A program made the position numbers and the translations under genes. DNA of 5,809 nucleotides from a virus (taxonomy: Duplodnaviria > Heunggongvirae > Uroviricota > Caudoviricetes): IMG/VR virus record IMGVR_UViG_2563366935_000009; one strand, 5' to 3'. Below the pieces are notes generated by a model. It worked only from the letters and a program-made list of their open reading frames with translations. It made no database searches and was not told the origin of the DNA. Of the stretch, positions 1 through 5,809 are shown one piece after another; positions within the stretch are counted from its first letter, which is position 1; every line of letters starts with the position of its first letter.

Positions 1-153
1 AACCCAGACACGCAGAGTCTCTGGCGTACAGCCAATCTTTGGAGCAATGGAACAAATTGCCGCCCATTGTGAGTGATATTCGCCCTGACTTTCCAGAACC
101 ATACGAACTGCCCGTTGACGGACTTCGGGGGAAAAACGAGTATTTTTAGTCAT
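1..153 (-). CDS. IS3-family transposase OrfA, N-terminal 51 codons (partial; continues beyond the window)
   Basis: The - strand ATG at 153-151 opens a frame reading [51 protein letters not shown], which is the helix-turn-helix N-terminus characteristic of IS3-group OrfA proteins. The frame is open to position 1. Confidence 0.75.
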
Positions 154-207
154 CCTGTTTACCTCTTTCTCAGGAAGTTTAGTCTCCAGGATTTCCGGGG
201 CGGTTCA
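1..207 (-). mobile_element. End of an IS3-family insertion sequence (IS629/IS1203-like), truncated by the window edge; the element terminus is at about 207
   Basis: The reverse complement of 154-207 reads TGAACCGCCCCGGAAATCCTGGAGACTAAACTTCCTGAGAAAGAGGTAAACAGG and is followed directly by the orfA ATG. The terminal TGA... end and the 50-60 bp leader before orfA are typical of IS3-family left ends. The IS629 assignment is from memory, not a search. Confidence 0.7.
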
Positions 208-474
208 CTTTAACATTGATGGGATTGTCCCGCCGAAATGCGGGAACCAAAGAGTAGTTGGCTTTGGGGTGACGTGAAGTGCAGCTGCACGACGGCAACC
301 GGAAGATAAGCACCCGGCGCGTCACCGCCAAAGTCAATTCCATAGGCGTTATGCAGCCGCCACCATATTCAAGAAAGCTGCACAAGAGGTAGGAGGATTT
401 ATGTGAATGCATAACTTCAAAACCGAGGTTAATTAAATCTCTCGATCCGAGCATCGACCTATTAGGTGGCGAGA

Positions 475-503
475 TGCTCTTTCTGCCCCTCAGTTCGAGG
501 GGC
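475..503 (+). promoter_or_regulatory. Candidate nutL site: boxA-like TGCTCTTT (475-482) followed by a boxB-like hairpin (485-503)
   Basis: TGCTCTTT matches the boxA consensus (rrn-type TGCTCTTT, lambda CGCTCTTA). The hairpin is GCCCCTC-AGTTC-GAGGGGC (7-bp stem, 5-nt loop) with no downstream T-tract, so it is not a terminator. It lies 56 bp upstream of the N-like ATG. The boxA-boxB spacing (2 nt) is shorter than in lambda. Confidence 0.4.
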
Positions 504-558
504 CAGAAACCACTTTGCAATCACTATCAATTCCAAAGTTGTTTCATCGGAGGTCAAC

Positions 559-858
559 ATGACAGTAGTCATTACATATCTGGCTGACGATAACGCCAGA
601 AATCGCCGCAGAGCACGCAGACAGGCTCAACGTGAACAGGCGATGCAAGAACAGCGACTGGCGCGAAAAATTGCGCTAAAGCTCTCTGGTTGCGTCAGAG
701 CGGATAAAGCAGCATCACTCGGAATCCTTCGCTGCAAGAAGGCAGATGAAGTCGAGAGTAAACAGAATCGTATTTACTACCGCAAGCCACGCAGTGAAAT
801 GGGTGTGACTTGTGTTGGTCGCCAGAAAATGAAATTAGGCAGCAAACCACTTATTTGA
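559..858 (+). CDS. N: N-like transcription antitermination protein (99 aa)
   Basis: RBS GGAGG at 549-553, then ATG 559. There is an N-terminal arginine-rich motif (NARNRRRARRQAQREQ). The C-terminus RIYYRKPRSEMGVTCVGRQKMKLGSKPLI closely parallels the lambda N C-terminus as I recall it (RTWYSKPGERGITCSGRQKIKGKSIPLI). The track ORF 466..858 is an upstream extension with no RBS. Confidence 0.75.
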   Translation: MTVVITYLADDNARNRRRARRQAQREQAMQEQRLARKIALKLSGCVRADKAASLGILRCKKADEVESKQNRIYYRKPRSEMGVTCVGRQKMKLGSKPLI

Positions 859-866
859 GGTGATAT

Positions 867-1337
867 ATGACAAAATCATGGAGCGTACCTTTTCCTGAAT
901 CAGAAACTGAACATGATGGAATGCCTGTTTTCTGGAGATTCCAAGCGACAGTTGAAGAAGATGGAATCAAAATATTCGCACTTCAATATATAGCTTTTCA
1001 TCAGACAGAGCATTATGCATGGTTGGTTCCTGCGCATTGGATTGTTAATTTTAAACCAGCACCAAATCAGTGGTTACAGGAATGGAAACAAAGGAGAAAT
1101 AGATATGCAATTAAGAAAGTAGCAAAAAATGCAGAAAGATCTTTTGCATTCCCGACGAAGAAACTTGCCATTGAAAGTTTATTGCGCCGGAAGAAATACC
1201 ATTTGATGAGAATCAAACAAGATTTGGCTGTTGTATCAACTCTTGTTGATGGGATGAAGAATATTGATACATCAACACCAGGTATTGAATATAACTTTGG
1301 ACACAACCAAGAAACAGAAAACTGGGTGTTTTATTAG
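867..1337 (+). CDS. Hypothetical protein (156 aa), encoded in an AT-rich segment
   Basis: RBS GAGGTGA at 857-863, ATG 867, stop TAG 1335-1337. The region is markedly more AT-rich than its flanks. The C-terminal half is Lys/Arg-rich. I recognise no family. It occupies the slot between N and cIII that holds ral/sieB-type accessory genes in lambda. Confidence 0.65.
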   Translation: MTKSWSVPFPESETEHDGMPVFWRFQATVEEDGIKIFALQYIAFHQTEHYAWLVPAHWIVNFKPAPNQWLQEWKQRRNRYAIKKVAKNAERSFAFPTKKLAIESLLRRKKYHLMRIKQDLAVVSTLVDGMKNIDTSTPGIEYNFGHNQETENWVFY

Positions 1338-1350
1338 TACGAATAAGCAC

Positions 1351-1379
1351 TGTGTATTCATTCCAACGAGTGAATACAC
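1351..1379 (+). repeat. Perfect 9-bp inverted repeat (GTGTATTCA / TGAATACAC) around a 10-nt spacer
   Basis: Read directly: 1352-1360 GTGTATTCA and 1371-1379 TGAATACAC. There is no T-tract after it, so it is not a canonical intrinsic terminator. Confidence 0.5.
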
Positions 1380-1441
1380 GGAGCAATGTCGCTCGTAACT
1401 AAACAGGAGCCGACTTGTTCTGATTATTGGAAATCTTCTTT

Positions 1442-1467
1442 GCCCTCCAGTGTGAGGGCTTTTTTAT
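1442..1467 (+). terminator. Rho-independent terminator (tL-like), first of a tandem pair
   Basis: GCCCTC (1442-1447), loop CAGTGT, GAGGGC (1454-1459), followed by TTTTTTAT. Confidence 0.65.
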
Positions 1468-1479
1468 ATGCATACCAAT

Positions 1480-1507
1480 AACGCTTCACTCGAGGCGTTT
1501 TCGTTAT
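1480..1507 (+). terminator. Second hairpin with a U-rich tail (weaker terminator)
   Basis: AACGCTTC / GAGGCGTT stem (8 bp with one G-U pair), ACTC tetraloop, followed by TTCGTTAT. It lies immediately upstream of the cIII-like RBS. Confidence 0.4.
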
Positions 1508-1531
1508 GCAATCAAACAGAAGGAGCATCCT

Positions 1532-1702
1532 ATGCAACAGTTCGCTATTGCAGGGGCGGCATCGGTTCGCCCTTTCAACCCGATTTTATCGGTACAGCAT
1601 TCACGAAAAAACATTTTAACCGGAGCAGACTTTAAACAACCAAGAATGAAAAGCTTGCTCGAAAAGCTTTGGGATATTTTGAAACAACAAGGCCGTCCAT
1701 GA
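1532..1702 (+). CDS. cIII: cIII-like small protein (56 aa), a putative FtsH-inhibitor family member
   Basis: RBS AGGAG at 1521-1525, ATG 1532. The N-terminus MQQFAIAG and the segment SLLEKLWDILKQQG resemble lambda CIII (MQYAIAG ... SLLERITRKLRDGWKRLIDILNQPG, from memory). Its position after N and the tL terminators matches lambda cIII. Confidence 0.5.
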   Translation: MQQFAIAGAASVRPFNPILSVQHSRKNILTGADFKQPRMKSLLEKLWDILKQQGRP

Positions 1703-1857
1703 GTTTTACGGATAACTGGTCAGACGAAGAATTCATTCGTCAGATAAAAGAATTAATCGGTAACGAAGGAGATATTCATGTCACTTGCAACCACAGTGAA
1801 GGAGAGCAAGTTACAGAGACGCATGTACACGCAGAAAGCTCTCTGGTATCGCCATAA
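1699..1857 (+). CDS. Small strongly acidic hypothetical protein (52 aa), in the kil/gam-equivalent position
   Basis: ATG 1699 overlaps the cIII-like stop (ATGA). The product MSFTDNWSDEEFIRQIKELIGNEGDIHVTCNHSEGEQVTETHVHAESSLVSP has about 11 acidic and 2 basic residues. There is no strong RBS; translational coupling is likely. Confidence 0.45.
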   Translation: MSFTDNWSDEEFIRQIKELIGNEGDIHVTCNHSEGEQVTETHVHAESSLVSP

Positions 1858-1958
1858 TGGTGACCGCGAAGGAATGCGGGTATGCCTTAATTTGTCCCGA
1901 GTCGAAGTATTAAATCAGCGTTATTTCCTTGGGCCGTGTCCATTCTGAGAGCAATCAT

Positions 1959-2564
1959 ATGAGCAAAGAATTTTACGCAAGACTGGCAGCTATTCAGGAG
2001 AATCTGAACGCGCCAAAGAATCAGTACAACTCATTCGGCAAATATAAATACAGAAGCTGCGAAGATATTCTTGAAGGCGTTAAGCCGTTACTGAACGGTC
2101 TGTTTTTATCAATCAGCGATGAAGTTGTGTTGATTGGTGATCGGTATTACGTGAAAGCCACGGCAACTATTACCGATGGCGAAAACAGTCATACGGCAAC
2201 CGCTCTTGCACGAGAGGAAGAAAGCAAGAAAGGAATGGATTCTGCACAAGTTACGGGAGCTACAAGCTCTTATGCACGCAAGTATTGCCTCAATGGTTTG
2301 TTCGGCATTGATGATGCGAAAGATGCAGATACAGACGAGCATAAACATCAGCAGAACGCAGCAGCAAAGCAATCAAAACCATCACTTACACCTGAACAGG
2401 TTCTAAAAGCATTCACTGACGCAGCAATGCAGAAAAACACCGTAGAAGAGCTTAAACAGGCGTTCGCCAAAGCGTGGAAGATGCTCGAAGGGACGCCGGA
2501 GCAGCACAAAGCGCAGGACGTTTACAACATCAGACGAGACGAATTAGAAGGGGCAACTGCTTAA
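1959..2564 (+). CDS. erf: Erf-family single-strand annealing recombinase (201 aa)
   Basis: The translation from ATG 1959 (MSKEFYARLAAIQENLNAPKNQYNSFGKYKYRSCEDILEGVKPLLNGL ... SSYARKYCLNGLFGIDD) matches the P22 Erf sequence as I recall it almost residue for residue at the N-terminus. The track start at 1929 is a TTG extension. Confidence 0.85.
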   Translation: MSKEFYARLAAIQENLNAPKNQYNSFGKYKYRSCEDILEGVKPLLNGLFLSISDEVVLIGDRYYVKATATITDGENSHTATALAREEESKKGMDSAQVTGATSSYARKYCLNGLFGIDDAKDADTDEHKHQQNAAAKQSKPSLTPEQVLKAFTDAAMQKNTVEELKQAFAKAWKMLEGTPEQHKAQDVYNIRRDELEGATA

Positions 2565-2947
2565 TGGCACATTCGATTACAGTAAGACTAAACAAACCCG
2601 CAAGAGAGTTTCAGGGCGGGGAAAATATCGGATTCAACATCCGTGCTGGCGTTCAGTATTACGATCGCCAGACAAAAAAGAAAGAATGGACAAACTACAG
2701 CGCCGTTGTATTTGCCAAGCCGGGAGCGCAAGCGGATTACTATCGTAGCGTTCTGGTTGAAGGAGGCATTGTAGAAATTACCGGAGAAAACATCAGGGTT
2801 GATGTTTATCAGGGGCAAAATGGTCAATCAATCACTCTTGAATTACTGAATGCAAAGATTGGATTTGCAACTTCAGGAAACAGCCAACAGCAGCAAAGTA
2901 GCAATCATCAAAATAATCCTGAATACGACGATTCCATCCCATTCTGA
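2564..2947 (+). CDS. ssb: SSB-like single-stranded DNA-binding protein (127 aa) with an acidic C-terminal tail
   Basis: ATG 2564 overlaps the erf stop (TAATG). The OB-fold-like core (EWTNYSAVVFAK ... GGIVEITGENIRVDVYQGQNGQSITLELL) is followed by a Gln/Ser-rich linker and a C-terminal PEYDDSIPF, resembling the E. coli SSB tail DDDIPF. Confidence 0.65.
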   Translation: MAHSITVRLNKPAREFQGGENIGFNIRAGVQYYDRQTKKKEWTNYSAVVFAKPGAQADYYRSVLVEGGIVEITGENIRVDVYQGQNGQSITLELLNAKIGFATSGNSQQQQSSNHQNNPEYDDSIPF

Positions 2948-2970
2948 TTTAGAAAAATAAGGATTTAATT

Positions 2971-3267
2971 ATGCCAGCGCCTTTGTATGGTGCGGATGAC
3001 CCGCGCCGCTGTTCCGGCAATTCCGTATCGGAGGTGCTGGATAAATTCAGAAAAAACTACGATCGAATAATGTCTCTACCGCAGGAAACGAAAGAGGAAA
3101 AGGAATTTCGCCACTGTATATGGCTTGCAGAGAAAGAAGAACGCGAGCGAATTTACCAGACATCAATCCGACCATTCCGCAAAGCCACATATACCCACTT
3201 CCCTGAATATATCGACCCGCGCCTGCGTAATTACCGCTCACGCTATGGCGCTATCAGTAATGACTGA
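2971..3267 (+). CDS. Hypothetical basic protein (98 aa); positional candidate for an Abc2-like anti-RecBCD function
   Basis: RBS AAGGA at 2959-2963, ATG 2971. Directly downstream of the erf-ssb module, where P22 carries abc2. The product is proline-containing and basic. The family assignment is not verified. Confidence 0.55.
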   Translation: MPAPLYGADDPRRCSGNSVSEVLDKFRKNYDRIMSLPQETKEEKEFRHCIWLAEKEERERIYQTSIRPFRKATYTHFPEYIDPRLRNYRSRYGAISND

Positions 3268-3361
3268 GGAATTTACCATGAGAGGACTTGCTTAAGAGAA
3301 AGAGTTTCGGTTCTGTTAATGACAACAAATATCTGAATGCGATGTGGCGGAGTGGGAAGAA

Positions 3362-3880
3362 ATGAAACAAATGTCACTAATTGAGATGGATGGTTTTCTG
3401 AAAGGTAAATGCATCCCAAGTGATTTAAAGGTTAACGAAACAAACGCTGAATACCTTGTCCGTAAGTTCGGTGAACTTGAATCAAAACTGGAAACGGCGT
3501 TGCGGGAGTGTAGTTCTGCTGGAATCACGATTGATAACCTTGAGGCTAAATGCGCGAAGATGGCTGCTGAAAATACCTCACTTAAGCAATCTGAGAAGGA
3601 ATTTAATGACTTTTGTCGTGAGGAGTTTAGCGAATGGGAAGATGATGTTACTGAAACCCCAGCCACCGATGCTTTTCTGGCTGAAGTGCGGGCGCAGGGG
3701 GTGGATGCTGCTATAGAAGCTGCAAAAAATCTGGTGGCCCAAGAATATGAGTATAAGGATTTCAAAGCGGCGCAGAGTGATTGCTGTATGCACCCTGGTT
3801 CAGACCTGGTAGGGAAGGTTGAAATGACTGAGTGGTTAGTTGACTTTGCTGCCCAGCTTCGCAAAGGAGGCAACCAGTGA
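3362..3880 (+). CDS. Coiled-coil hypothetical protein (172 aa), Ea22-like by composition and position
   Basis: GGAG at 3349-3352, ATG 3362 (an in-frame GTG at 3344 is an alternative). The product is Glu/Ala/Lys-rich with heptad-like segments (LESKLETALREC, NLEAKCAKMAAENTSLKQSEKE). The stop overlaps the next start (GTGA). Confidence 0.6.
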   Translation: MKQMSLIEMDGFLKGKCIPSDLKVNETNAEYLVRKFGELESKLETALRECSSAGITIDNLEAKCAKMAAENTSLKQSEKEFNDFCREEFSEWEDDVTETPATDAFLAEVRAQGVDAAIEAAKNLVAQEYEYKDFKAAQSDCCMHPGSDLVGKVEMTEWLVDFAAQLRKGGNQ

Positions 3881-4176
3881 CTGTATGTCTTATTGATAAA
3901 CGTCGACGTGGGCAACAAATACCATCTGTTGAAATGCCGAATCACACATGGTTTTGCGTACTTGATATCGATGGTATGGATACGTTGGTTGACACTCGTC
4001 ATTACTGCGATACCGCAACAGCTACTCCGGCGAAAGCAAAGAAAATGGCTGCTCTGATAGAAAACTGGACTCCACCTGATGGTTGGTGCAATGGGAATGA
4101 TCGAGATTGGCACGAAAAAATGAAGGGCTATATCTGCGATTTTTTACGTAAATGCAACGGCTTCAGGGGGATGTGA
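3877..4176 (+). CDS. Hypothetical protein (99 aa)
   Basis: AGGAGG at 3864-3869, then GTG 3877 overlapping the upstream stop. Stop TGA 4174-4176. I recognise no family. Confidence 0.5.
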   Translation: MTVCLIDKRRRGQQIPSVEMPNHTWFCVLDIDGMDTLVDTRHYCDTATATPAKAKKMAALIENWTPPDGWCNGNDRDWHEKMKGYICDFLRKCNGFRGM

Positions 4177-4177
4177 T

Positions 4178-4750
4178 ATGACCAAAATTAACTATCAGGC
4201 ACTGCGTGAGGCGGCAGAACGTGCAATTCCGGCAATGGAACGCCTGTTAATGTTGCCAGTTGATGATGATTTGTTAAGTGAACAGGAACTTAAGGATTAC
4301 GGTGTGGATATTGATGCGCTCAACGCCTTCAAATTTCTGACCGGACCAGAAACCGTGCTGGCGCTGCTGGATGAACGGGAAAGAAACCAGCAATACATCA
4401 AACGCCGCGACCAGGAGAACGAGGAAATTGCGCTAACGGTAGGGAAGCTGCGCGTTGAGCTGGAAGCTGCAGAGAAGCGCATTGCAGAACTGGAAGCCGA
4501 ACCTGTAAGCCAAACTTACAAGTTGAACGAGCTGTCGGGCAACTATCCGGTAACTCCGGATGGTTGGATAAGCTGTAGTGAGCGAATGCCCGCTCAAGAT
4601 GATTGGATTTTAATTTATTCAAAGCACGGCGAGTATATGGCAGGACAGGTACAAGGGGAATACGTGGAGTTGAGCGACGGCACTTTATCGTGGTTAGGGA
4701 ACGCCTTGTACTGGATGCCTCTACCGGAACCGCCGCAGGAGGTTAATTGA
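4178..4750 (+). CDS. Phage protein with an N-terminal coiled coil and a C-terminal DUF551 domain (190 aa)
   Basis: AGGGGG at 4165-4170, ATG 4178. The C-terminus DGWISCSERMPAQDDWILIYSKHGEYMAGQ ... LYWMPLPEPP has the DUF551 signature (W..... ERLP ... WMPLPEPP). The N-terminus resembles Ea22-like coiled-coil proteins. Confidence 0.7.
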   Translation: MTKINYQALREAAERAIPAMERLLMLPVDDDLLSEQELKDYGVDIDALNAFKFLTGPETVLALLDERERNQQYIKRRDQENEEIALTVGKLRVELEAAEKRIAELEAEPVSQTYKLNELSGNYPVTPDGWISCSERMPAQDDWILIYSKHGEYMAGQVQGEYVELSDGTLSWLGNALYWMPLPEPPQEVN

Positions 4751-5034
4751 TGGTCTCCTTCGCGAAATATACGATTATTGACTGGATAGCATTCATTCAG
4801 GTTTTGCTCATCTGGTTTTATATGGCTTACAGGAGTGGACAGTGGATTGTCAGTGTAGCCTGTAGCAATGGATGGCGTTGGTGGAACCGAAAGAATAAAA
4901 AAGCGCTGGCCTTGGCTTCGTTTTACGAAGCATTCAATCTTAACAGTCTTCAGCCTGGTTCTGTCGTTGTAGTCACCACTCAAAGCGGCATGACGATACA
5001 AATTCACAAGCCAAAGGAGGAAGGTCGTGGCTAA
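4750..5034 (+). CDS. Small predicted single-pass membrane protein (94 aa)
   Basis: AGGAGG at 4737-4742, ATG 4750 overlapping the upstream stop (TGATG). Hydrophobic segment YTIIDWIAFIQVLLIWFYMAY, followed by basic RWWNRKNKK. The 3' end overlaps the next gene by 8 nt. Confidence 0.55.
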   Translation: MVSFAKYTIIDWIAFIQVLLIWFYMAYRSGQWIVSVACSNGWRWWNRKNKKALALASFYEAFNLNSLQPGSVVVVTTQSGMTIQIHKPKEEGRG

Positions 5035-5311
5035 CCTGCAACTTGCCGTTAAAGGTGAATACTTCGATGCCATGATTCGCGGAGAGAAAACGGAAGAGTA
5101 TCGCCTGTGTAATGACTACTGGAATAAGCGAATTATGTTCCGCGAGTATGACCGCCTGATTATCACAAAGGGATATCCGAAGCGCGACGATTCCAGCCGC
5201 AGAATTGACGTCCCGTATGACGGATATGAAATCAAGACAATCACACATCCGCACTTCGGCGATAAACCGGTAAAGGTGTTCGCTATAAAGGTGAATATCG
5301 ACAATGAATGA
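5027..5311 (+). CDS. ASCH/PUA-like fold protein (94 aa), tentative (DUF3850-like)
   Basis: AAGGAGG at 5014-5020, then GTG 5027. The N-terminal pattern LQLAVKGEYFDAMIRGEKTEEYRL ... YDRLIITKGY resembles the beta-barrel signature of ASCH-type domains (from memory of HELKI.PEYFEAV.SGKKTFEIR ... GD.L.L). Confidence 0.5.
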   Translation: MANLQLAVKGEYFDAMIRGEKTEEYRLCNDYWNKRIMFREYDRLIITKGYPKRDDSSRRIDVPYDGYEIKTITHPHFGDKPVKVFAIKVNIDNE

Positions 5312-5315
5312 TAAT

Positions 5316-5342
5316 CCTCGCACTCGCGGGGATTTCTTTTAT
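5316..5342 (+). terminator. Rho-independent terminator, first of a tandem pair downstream of the ASCH-like gene
   Basis: CCTCGC (5316-5321), ACTC loop, GCGGGG (5326-5331), followed by ATTTCTTTTAT. Confidence 0.5.
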
Positions 5343-5347
5343 CTGAA

Positions 5348-5370
5348 CTCGCTACGGCGGGTTTTGTTTT
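5348..5370 (+). terminator. Second terminator-like hairpin with a UNCG-type loop
   Basis: CTCGC (5348-5352), TACG loop, GCGGG (5357-5361), followed by TTTTGTTTT. Confidence 0.5.
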
Positions 5371-5383
5371 ATGGAGATGATAA

Positions 5384-5551
5384 ATGCACTTCCGAGTCAC
5401 AGGTGAATGGAATGGAGAGCCATTCAACAGAGTTATCGAAGCAGAGAACATCAACGACTGCTATGACCACTGGATGCTGTGGGCGCAGATAGCACATGCA
5501 GACGTAACTAATATTCGAATTGAAGAACTGAAAGAACACCAAGCCGCCTGA
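5384..5551 (+). CDS. Small hypothetical protein (55 aa), not in the supplied ORF track
   Basis: GGAG at 5373-5376, 7-nt spacer, ATG 5384. The product is MHFRVTGEWNGEPFNRVIEAENINDCYDHWMLWAQIAHADVTNIRIEELKEHQAA. The stop TGA 5549-5551 sits in the loop of the downstream terminator. Confidence 0.45.
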   Translation: MHFRVTGEWNGEPFNRVIEAENINDCYDHWMLWAQIAHADVTNIRIEELKEHQAA

Positions 5552-5566
5552 TGGCGGTTTTTTATT
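5541..5566 (+). terminator. Rho-independent terminator immediately upstream of xis
   Basis: CCGCC (5544-5548), TGAT loop, GGCGG (5553-5557), followed by TTTTTTATT. Confidence 0.65.
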
Positions 5567-5608
5567 GCCTGATTTGCAGGTTCGATTCCCTATTCGGAGA
5601 TAGCACTC

Positions 5609-5809
5609 ATGCAACACGAACTACAACCTGATTCACTGGTTGATTTGAAATTCATCATGGCCGATACTGGCTTCGGTAAAACCTTCATCTATGACCGGAT
5701 TAAGTCCGGCGACCTGCCAAAAGCCAAAGTTATCCACGGGCGAGCAAGATGGTTATATCGTGACCATTGTGAATTCAAAAATAAGCTCTTAAGCCGCGCC
5801 AATGGGTAA
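5609..5809 (+). CDS. xis: AlpA-family excisionase / DNA-binding protein (66 aa)
   Basis: GGAGA at 5596-5600, ATG 5609, stop TAA 5807-5809. The winged-helix pattern TGFGKTFIYDRIKSGDLPKAKVIHGRARWLYRDHCEF matches the AlpA/Xis family motif (TG.S...IY ... G.FP.P.K.G.R...W...D...W). It sits at the distal end of the early-left operon, where xis-int is expected. Confidence 0.7.
   Translation: MQHELQPDSLVDLKFIMADTGFGKTFIYDRIKSGDLPKAKVIHGRARWLYRDHCEFKNKLLSRANG

Follow-up and report, generated by a model that had tools for sequence, protein, structure and literature searches.

That phage annealing proteins can be paired with a cognate SSB ending in an acidic tip is already known. The compatibility of annealing proteins with SSB tails is a topic of current interest, and the C-terminal tails of SSBs are regarded as a main factor in the activity and host range of annealing proteins (PMC12054835; PMC13490951). 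In phage HK620, the SSB (HkaK, DUF669, "SSB-2") stimulates the neighbouring annealase Sak4 in vivo as well as in vitro, and the final six residues of this SSB, NDYPPF, are needed for this effect (PMC5928155). Redβ has been cited as binding SSB (PMC12315714). A survey of 325 lambdoid phages (Genome Research 2025; PMC12315714) describes, in its passages on the subject, SSB genes that sit within recombination modules, among them HK97 gp40, which was named "SSB-1b" from an AlphaFold 3 fold resembling that of bacterial SSB, with sequence similarity nearly gone. The SSB likeness of the SSB-1b family is thus not new to the literature. The same passages describe a module class composed of an anti-RecBCD protein, an SSB and an annealing protein without a nuclease, with HK75 as its prototype and 27 phages as members. 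The anti-RecBCD protein Abc2 turns RecBCD into a resection machine that is proposed to load Erf (PMC9836394).

The window analysed here, the whole stretch of 5,809 nucleotides, can be placed by nucleotide identity as part of a CUS-3-like P22-type prophage within an E. coli chromosome. From base 208 to base 5809 it has 100% identity with a prophage in the chromosome of E. coli ST95-32, and phage CUS-3 matches ~80% of the window at 98.8%, with 100% identity over the interval 1959-2947. CUS-3 is a P22-like Lederbergvirus, with E. coli K1 strain RS218 as its source. All real genes of the window are on the + strand and succeed one another as in a lambdoid early-left operon, beginning with an N-like antiterminator, a gp45-like open-reading frame (ORF), cIII, and kil with small ORFs, and continuing with erf, a 127-aa ORF (ssb), abc2, a set of ea-type genes (Ead/Ea22 with DUF551, DUF7739, ASCH-like), the attR core and the host gene torI. 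The 56-aa ORF directly upstream of erf occupies the slot of P22 arf and HK97 gp42 (gp42/42.1), and the order erf, ssb, abc2 is common to the window, CUS-3 and HK97. By the description of the HK75-type module class in the survey's passages on it (PMC12315714), the window belongs to this class. The features discussed below are the following.

559-858, + strand: N-like antiterminator (weak match to PF25694)
1778..1948, + strand: small ORF of 56 aa directly 5′ of erf (from the ORF list)
1959..2564, + strand: erf, Erf-family single-strand annealing protein, 201 aa (PF04404; phrog_155, E=5.9e-57)
1971..2381, + strand: N-terminal annealing (ERF) domain of Erf, aa 5-141 (extent of the PF04404 match)
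2394..2549, + strand: C-terminal module of Erf, ~52 aa, aa 146-197 (predicted three-helix bundle)
2546..2553, + strand: Shine-Dalgarno-like AGAAGGGG within the 3′ end of erf, 10 nt 5′ of the ssb ATG (direct reading)
2562..2566, + strand: TAATG overlap of erf stop and ssb start (direct reading)
2564..2947, + strand: ssb, divergent SSB gene, 127 aa with stop TGA at 2945-2947 (HK97 gp40 ortholog; phrog_44)
2564..2872, + strand: OB-fold core, predicted to bind ssDNA, aa 1-103 (AF2 model, fold matches and hhalign)
2873..2923, + strand: Q/S/N-rich linker, predicted disordered, aa 104-120 (pLDDT and composition)
2924..2944, + strand: C-terminal tip YDDSIPF, aa 121-127 (counterpart of FDDDIPF in E. 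coli SSB)
2971..3267, + strand: abc2, anti-RecBCD protein 2, third gene of the recombination module (PF11043, E=4.3e-62; phrog_656, E=7.8e-57)

A first-pass annotation of this DNA, made from the letters alone, had called an Erf recombinase whose stop codon overlaps the start of an SSB-like gene as TAATG, and both calls are correct, the coordinates of the overlap being exact. The 201-aa protein belongs to the ERF family, matching PF04404 at 150.9 bits (cutoff 25; E=3.5e-44), and is 75% identical to P22 Erf. The erf gene begins with ATG at 1959 and ends with TAA at 2562-2564, and the ATG of ssb at 2564-2566 has a single base, A2564, in common with that stop. An in-frame GTG at 2474 was considered as an alternative start for ssb and was ruled out by the N-termini of the aligned homologs, all 47 of which read M(A/S)HSITV or MHSITV and thus begin at the ATG at 2564. 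A 1-base overlap with the upstream gene was also found in HK97, a Serratia prophage and a Vibrio phage, while in Edwardsiella phage GF-2 the overlap with the upstream recombination gene takes the form ATGA, and P22 has an overlap of the same kind between erf and abc1. Nowhere in the window, including between erf and ssb, did a sigma-70-like promoter show up.

The 127-aa protein is a member of the family of HK97 gp40, to which it is 93.7% identical across 127 aa (E=1e-63). Direct comparison by sequence leads only weakly to SSB. In Pfam the protein found no match (no PF00436 at E<0.1), the NCBIfam model TIGR00621 scored 19.1 bits against a cutoff of 53.95, the GF-2 homolog scored 18.1 bits against PF00436, under the cutoff of 26, and searches of the PDB by sequence and by profile returned E values of 0.04-0.5. 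The identification as an SSB rests for this reason on PHROGs, on profile-profile comparison with hhalign and on the predicted fold. In PHROGs, the protein matched phrog_44, "single strand DNA binding protein", at E=3.4e-29. An alignment of 47 diverse homologs, from which column conservation was also taken, aligned with E. coli SSB in hhalign at 92.3% probability (E=5.7e-7) over 57 columns, the E. coli reference sequence having been checked as identical to PDB 1EQQ/4MZ9. Comparison with SSB profiles, which had been suggested along with the first calls, accordingly gave a divided answer: remote homology is upheld by hhalign and phrog_44, but the thresholds of PF00436 and TIGR00621 are not reached.

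The AF2 model of the protein has a mean pLDDT of 85, with most of residues 1-100 above 90, and consists of strands at 3-8, 14-18, 21-34 and 39-51, a helix at 55-63, and strands at 69-74, 76-84, 87-95 and 98-103. This is the SSB topology of the OB fold, with a helix between strands 3 and 4 and long beta-hairpins, as modelled. Foldseek against the PDB returned 33 matches at E<=1e-3, all of them bacterial SSB, mitochondrial SSB or PriB, the top match having an E of 7e-5 and the TM values lying at 0.4-0.55. Trp40, Trp54, Phe60 and Trp88 are the classical ssDNA-contacting aromatics of E. coli SSB, and hhalign pairs them with Y32, W42, F50 and Y82 of the phage protein. These columns are nearly invariant among the 47 homologs, with Y at position 32 in all 47, W at 42 in 46, F at 50 in all 47, and an aromatic at 82 throughout (Y in 37, F in 10). 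Given the OB model, the alignment with E. coli SSB and the conservation of the aromatic columns, we assign the 127-aa protein, as modelled, to the SSB lineage as a real but very diverged OB protein, and the earlier expectation of an SSB-like protein with an OB fold is borne out by the AF2 model and its SSB-type Foldseek matches. A profile search of 1.84 billion representatives recovered 215 relatives at E<=1e-3 and did not reach the canonical SSBs. With only 215 relatives in a collection of that size, the SSB-1b family forms a small, discrete clade.

The C-terminus of the protein reads SGNSQQQQSSNHQNNPEYDDSIPF, ending ...PEYDDSIPF after a Gln/Ser-rich linker, as the first-pass annotation had read it from these positions. 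Residues 107-121 have a pLDDT below 50 in the AF2 model and are for this reason predicted to be disordered, and the protein thus has the disordered linker and acidic (I/P)PF tip by which bacterial SSBs are recognised. Among the matches listed, the exact DDSIPF end was present in 40 of 120 homolog clusters, and the majority of the other listed clusters finish with acidic residues and then (I/P)PF, with the pattern D/E-x-(I/P)PF and variants such as FDDSIPF, WDDEPPF, FEDDIPF and WDSDIPF; sublineages from Serratia and Rahnella carry ...PPF tips. A PF end was found in 63 of 117 full-length representatives (50% identity), and in 8 further representatives D(I/P)PF lies within the last 15 residues, ahead of a short extension. 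The tip is missing in ~40% of the distant SSB-1b family members. Linker and tip together extend for 23-81 residues beyond the OB core in the aligned homologs, a stretch that is hypervariable and not alignable. Members from GF-2 and a Leminorella prophage end in NEPPMDFDDDIPF and PPMDFDDDIPF, respectively, which is the terminus of E. coli SSB, and in members of this type the last 11-13 residues are identical to those of the host protein.

The possibility that the C-terminal motif is a chance match had been raised with the original call, and the family-wide conservation of the motif argues otherwise. Because a constrained tip stands on an unconstrained linker, as in bacterial SSBs, this comparison excludes a chance match for the DDSIPF tail. 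The claim that the tail mimics the tip of E. coli SSB holds for the resemblance between the tips, but mimicry is probably the wrong word, since the protein looks like a very diverged true SSB that has kept or regained the tail of its own family. The tail was probably retained from or exchanged with a host-type SSB, rather than having arisen by convergent mimicry.

Among the described systems, HK97 is the closest to this locus, with the same order of erf, gp40 and abc2, the same one-base overlap and a predicted fold that is SSB-like. It differs in that the deposited HK97 sequence contains one extra A, which turns the end of the protein into ...DDSNPILI instead of ...DDSIPF. With the tip replaced in this way, the record of the HK97 prototype is left without a tail. 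The main-text passages of the survey that deal with SSB, SSB-1b or gp40 contain no mention of an SSB-1b tail (PMC12315714), and the family-wide conservation of the tip may have escaped notice on account of the additional A in the HK97 record.

With E. coli SSB (PDB 1EQQ, 4MZ9, 1EYG), the phage protein shares the OB fold, the four aromatics, the disordered linker and the acidic IPF tip, although the two are only about 15-19% identical. The linker is ~17 aa and Q/S/N-rich in the phage protein, whereas that of E. coli SSB is much longer and Gly/Gln/Pro-rich, and the phage tip has Ser at the position of the third Asp in the E. coli tip.

The SSB of HK620 offers the best functional analogy, since it occupies the same slot between annealase and abc2 in a P22-like module and ends in a host-like hexapeptide (PMC5928155). 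It belongs, however, to an unrelated SSB family, its tip is NDYPPF where that of the window is DDSIPF, and its partner is a RecA-like ATPase, whereas Erf is Rad52-like. In Sf6 and ES18, Erf is directly followed by an "SSB-1" that ends in ...EPPMNFDDSDIPF, with abc2 further on; in contrast to the protein described here, Sf6 gp27 is a canonical SSB closely homologous to that of E. coli, and an HNH nuclease gene lies between gp27 and abc2. P22 has the same abc2, the 75% identical Erf already mentioned and the same overlap between the erf stop and the next start, but the slot of ssb is occupied by abc1 (94 aa). We also considered ssb as a diverged form of P22 Abc1, which was ruled out, as BLASTP gave no alignment at E<=100; the matches of P22 Abc1 are helix-turn-helix and sigma-70 region 4-like.

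Taken together with these systems, erf, ssb and abc2 probably constitute a lambdoid recombination module of the CUS-3/HK97 type within the early-left operon, in which the diverged SSB would coat ssDNA and recruit Erf through its tips, a reading we hold with good though not full confidence. Abc2-modified RecBCD, or another nuclease, would expose ssDNA that is then coated by the phage SSB, and the exposed SSB tips would dock Erf onto the coated strand, probably via the C-terminal three-helix module of Erf. The stop/start overlap would couple the synthesis of Erf and SSB in roughly matched amounts. We infer that the tail binds Erf or host SSB partners by analogy with the HK620 Sak4-SSB and Redβ-SSB pairs, and, given its likeness to the host's own, the tip may engage SSB-interacting proteins of the host as well. 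Beyond the modules of HK620, Sf6, ES18 and HK97 type, the conceptual gain is small; in practical terms, the locus provides a compact candidate of 127 aa as a cognate SSB for Erf-based recombineering.

The explanation that competes best with docking of Erf, and one compatible with it, is that the tail is mainly directed at the host, where it would recruit PriA, chi, RecQ, RecJ, ExoI, RecO and other SSB-binding proteins to the phage's ssDNA or titrate them, and thereby protect or process recombination or replication intermediates, with Erf not being its main ligand. The terminal Pro-Phe and the acidic residues ahead of it in the tip of E. coli SSB contact host partners (Shereda et al. 2008, as cited in PMC5928155), and the phage tail keeps both; this reading is also favoured by the family members with exactly the last 11-13 host residues, and by P22 Erf, which has a related C-terminal module and works without a phage SSB. 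Set against this, ssb is recurrently and tightly coupled to annealing genes of two families, and in the only tested analog, the HK620 SSB, the tip serves the annealase that belongs with it (PMC5928155). The ...PPF tips of the Serratia and Rahnella sublineages, moreover, depart from the host IPF in the same manner as NDYPPF of HK620. We therefore regard a mainly host-directed tail as possible but doubtful. The gene is of relevance to any host system that senses SSB tips or depends on them.

SSBs serve replication as well as recombination, and replication being among their roles, the protein could be a general replication SSB that came to lie beside erf by chance and has no specific part in Erf recombination; the occurrence of the family beside annealing proteins of more than one kind, and in one case with none in the vicinity, would agree with this. 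The position of the gene inside the erf, ssb, abc2 module, at the slot of P22 abc1, speaks against such an accident, as do the placement of SSB genes in recombination modules in the passages of the 325-phage survey (PMC12315714) and the conserved overlap with a recombinase or exonuclease gene, and we consider it unlikely. The remaining alternative is an OB protein that does not coat ssDNA, such as a PriB-like adaptor, with a tail resemblance that is functionally meaningless. His55 of E. coli SSB is classically tied to tetramer stability, and its alignment with Thr43 of the phage protein, the rejection of the protein by canonical SSB sequence models and the presence of PriB and RNA-editing OB proteins among the fold matches would all suit that alternative, which is nonetheless very improbable given the conservation of all four ssDNA-stacking aromatic positions, the layout of OB core, disordered linker and acidic tip kept over 215 representative clusters, and the match to phrog_44.

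If the SSB tips recruit Erf, the C-terminal module of Erf is the part of the protein most likely to receive them. A low-complexity linker connects this module with the core, and the 62-aa segment covering it (Erf 140-201) was predicted by AF2 at a pLDDT of 86.7 with helices at positions 6-19, 23-36 and 42-60 of the segment. A module 52% identical to it (E=1e-15) ends the AAA_24 (Sak4-like) protein of Erwinia phage vB_EhrS_59, and tblastn against phages found it at the end of the phiV10 RecET fusion and of SPN1S-like RecT (45-46% identity), with more distant copies in the Erf proteins of P22 and Sf6. A search of a large database with the C-terminal 62 aa of Erf brought up nothing beyond short pieces of closely related Erf proteins.

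The module is thus a shuffled one, carried by three different annealase cores both with and without a phage SSB. P22 Erf works without any phage SSB although it has the homologous module, and in phiV10 and EhrS_59 the module is present with no SSB adjoining; on account of these three, it is not specific to SSB-1b. This distribution fits a candidate docking domain for something common to enterobacterial hosts, e.g., the SSB tip. Redβ also has a small helical C-terminal domain apart from its annealing core. Foldseek of the module model against the PDB gave no match at E<1, the Redβ C-terminal domain being absent among the best 50, and the proposal that the module resembles the Redβ C-terminal domain or a known SSB-tail binder found no support there. 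A comparison of the Erf C-terminus with the type of SSB tip (IPF or PPF, present or absent) covered HK97, P22, GF-2, Serratia and the metagenome contig, too few independent lineages, with the C-termini of the distant ones not alignable, for co-variation to be read from them.

We tentatively propose, as a further step that is well short of probable, that the module, found on Erf, RecT, RecET and Sak4-like cores, is a portable adaptor that binds SSB tips, that SSB-1b is a co-translated source of host-type tips, and that the erf-ssb pair is a self-contained unit for loading annealase. Should this hold, domain shuffling would explain how annealing proteins of unrelated fold use the same SSB hub, and the erf-ssb pair could be exploited for portable recombineering.

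The ssb gene is common. In E. coli, Salmonella, Citrobacter and allied phages and prophages it comes after Erf, as it also does in a Serratia prophage, in Edwardsiella phage GF-2 and on a metagenome-derived phage contig, and in a Vibrio phage it follows RecT and an exonuclease; one metagenomic phage contig with a homolog has no recognisable annealing protein upstream. Out of 5,426 complete genomes of E. coli, 579 contain the gene, and so do about 50 sequenced phages, Stx-converting phages among them. Recognising it as an SSB with a tail of the working type would improve the annotation of these prophages, as the family is covered by no Pfam or NCBIfam model and nearly all of its records bear the label "hypothetical protein". 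This is the name given to ssb in CUS-3, and in the E. coli records listed, RefSeq always assigns the same name to the gene even as it adjoins an "ERF family protein".

In HK97 gp40, the counterpart of window 2930-2947 lies at 2870-2890 of the deposited record (L002, AF069529.1), and the gene carries one additional A at this point (GATTCCAATCCC compared to GATTCC-ATCCC in the window). Because of this additional base the frame is shifted and gp40 ends in ...YDDSNPILI rather than ...YDDSIPF, leaving the literature prototype of the SSB-1b family without the conserved tip. The additional A could be either a true mutation of the laboratory strain or a sequencing error dating from 2000.

In the SSB-1b homologs of Edwardsiella phage GF-2 (comparison locus L003, 2501-2899) and Leminorella (P0096), the final 11-13 residues are those of E. 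coli SSB, (NE)PPMDFDDDIPF, while the linker is otherwise diverged. An exact E. coli SSB tail on a diverged linker suggests that these tails were exchanged through recombination with an ssb gene of host or plasmid type. In phage Sf6 (L014, NC_005344.1, 2187-3149), RefSeq places the note "14 contiguous amino acids identical to E. coli SSB" on gp26. This protein is an HNH-type endonuclease, and its translation has no SSB-type tail at the C-terminus, ending in ...TLPFPRHAIHAI; the adjoining canonical SSB, gp27, ends in EPPMNFDDSDIPF. Judged from these translations, the note looks like a misplaced annotation.

The other features, by window position, were as follows.

1-207 (approximately the first 207 bases): end of an IS3-family element, with the transposase start on the minus strand
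486-504: GC-rich hairpin, GCCCCTCAGTTCGAGGGGC, 5′ of the N-like gene
1442-1459 and 1480-1499: two terminator-like hairpins, after the gp45-like ORF and before the cIII/kil region
2394-2549: C-terminal module of Erf, ~52 aa (residues 146-197), also at 2501-2656 in comparison phage locus L005 and about 2500-2686 in L013
4178-4750: intact ORF of 190 aa, Ead/Ea22-like (PF13935) in its N-terminal part and DUF551 in its C-terminal part
5574-5589: CUS-3 attR core, a tRNA 3′-end-like GGTTCGATTCC sequence
5609-5809: torI, 3′ of the attR core (attR-torI region, 5574-5809)

The C-terminal segment of Erf is a portable module, predicted to form three helices. It also ends the Sak4-like AAA_24 ATPase of Erwinia phage vB_EhrS_59, the phiV10 RecET fusion and the SPN1S-type RecT, and thus a single tail domain is found on three unrelated annealase cores.

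A consensus scan of window 1-5809 returned no sigma-70-like promoter sites on either strand, a strong depletion compared to the 8.7 +/- 2.0 expected from dinucleotide-preserving shuffles and consistent with a single long antiterminated operon. The GC-rich hairpin may be a nutL boxB, and HK97 has an annotated terminator at the position equivalent to the hairpins at 1442-1499. At the left edge, the IS3-family element occurs in thousands of copies across E. coli genomes, and the match to intact CUS-3-like prophages does not start until base 208, within the cI-to-N intergenic region, indicating that in the source strain the element lies between the repressor/pL region and the N-erf-ssb operon, whose expression it may affect.

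The Ead/Ea22-DUF551 ORF is intact in the window, whereas the RefSeq annotation of E. coli ST95-32 divides the identical sequence into an incomplete ead/Ea22-like pseudogene and a separate small ORF. At the right edge, torI encodes the excisionase and Tor inhibitor of the KplE1/CPS-53 prophage remnant and adjoins dsdC in ST95-32. The order of attR core followed by torI therefore indicates that the CUS-3-like prophage abuts an older prophage remnant at a common tRNA site.
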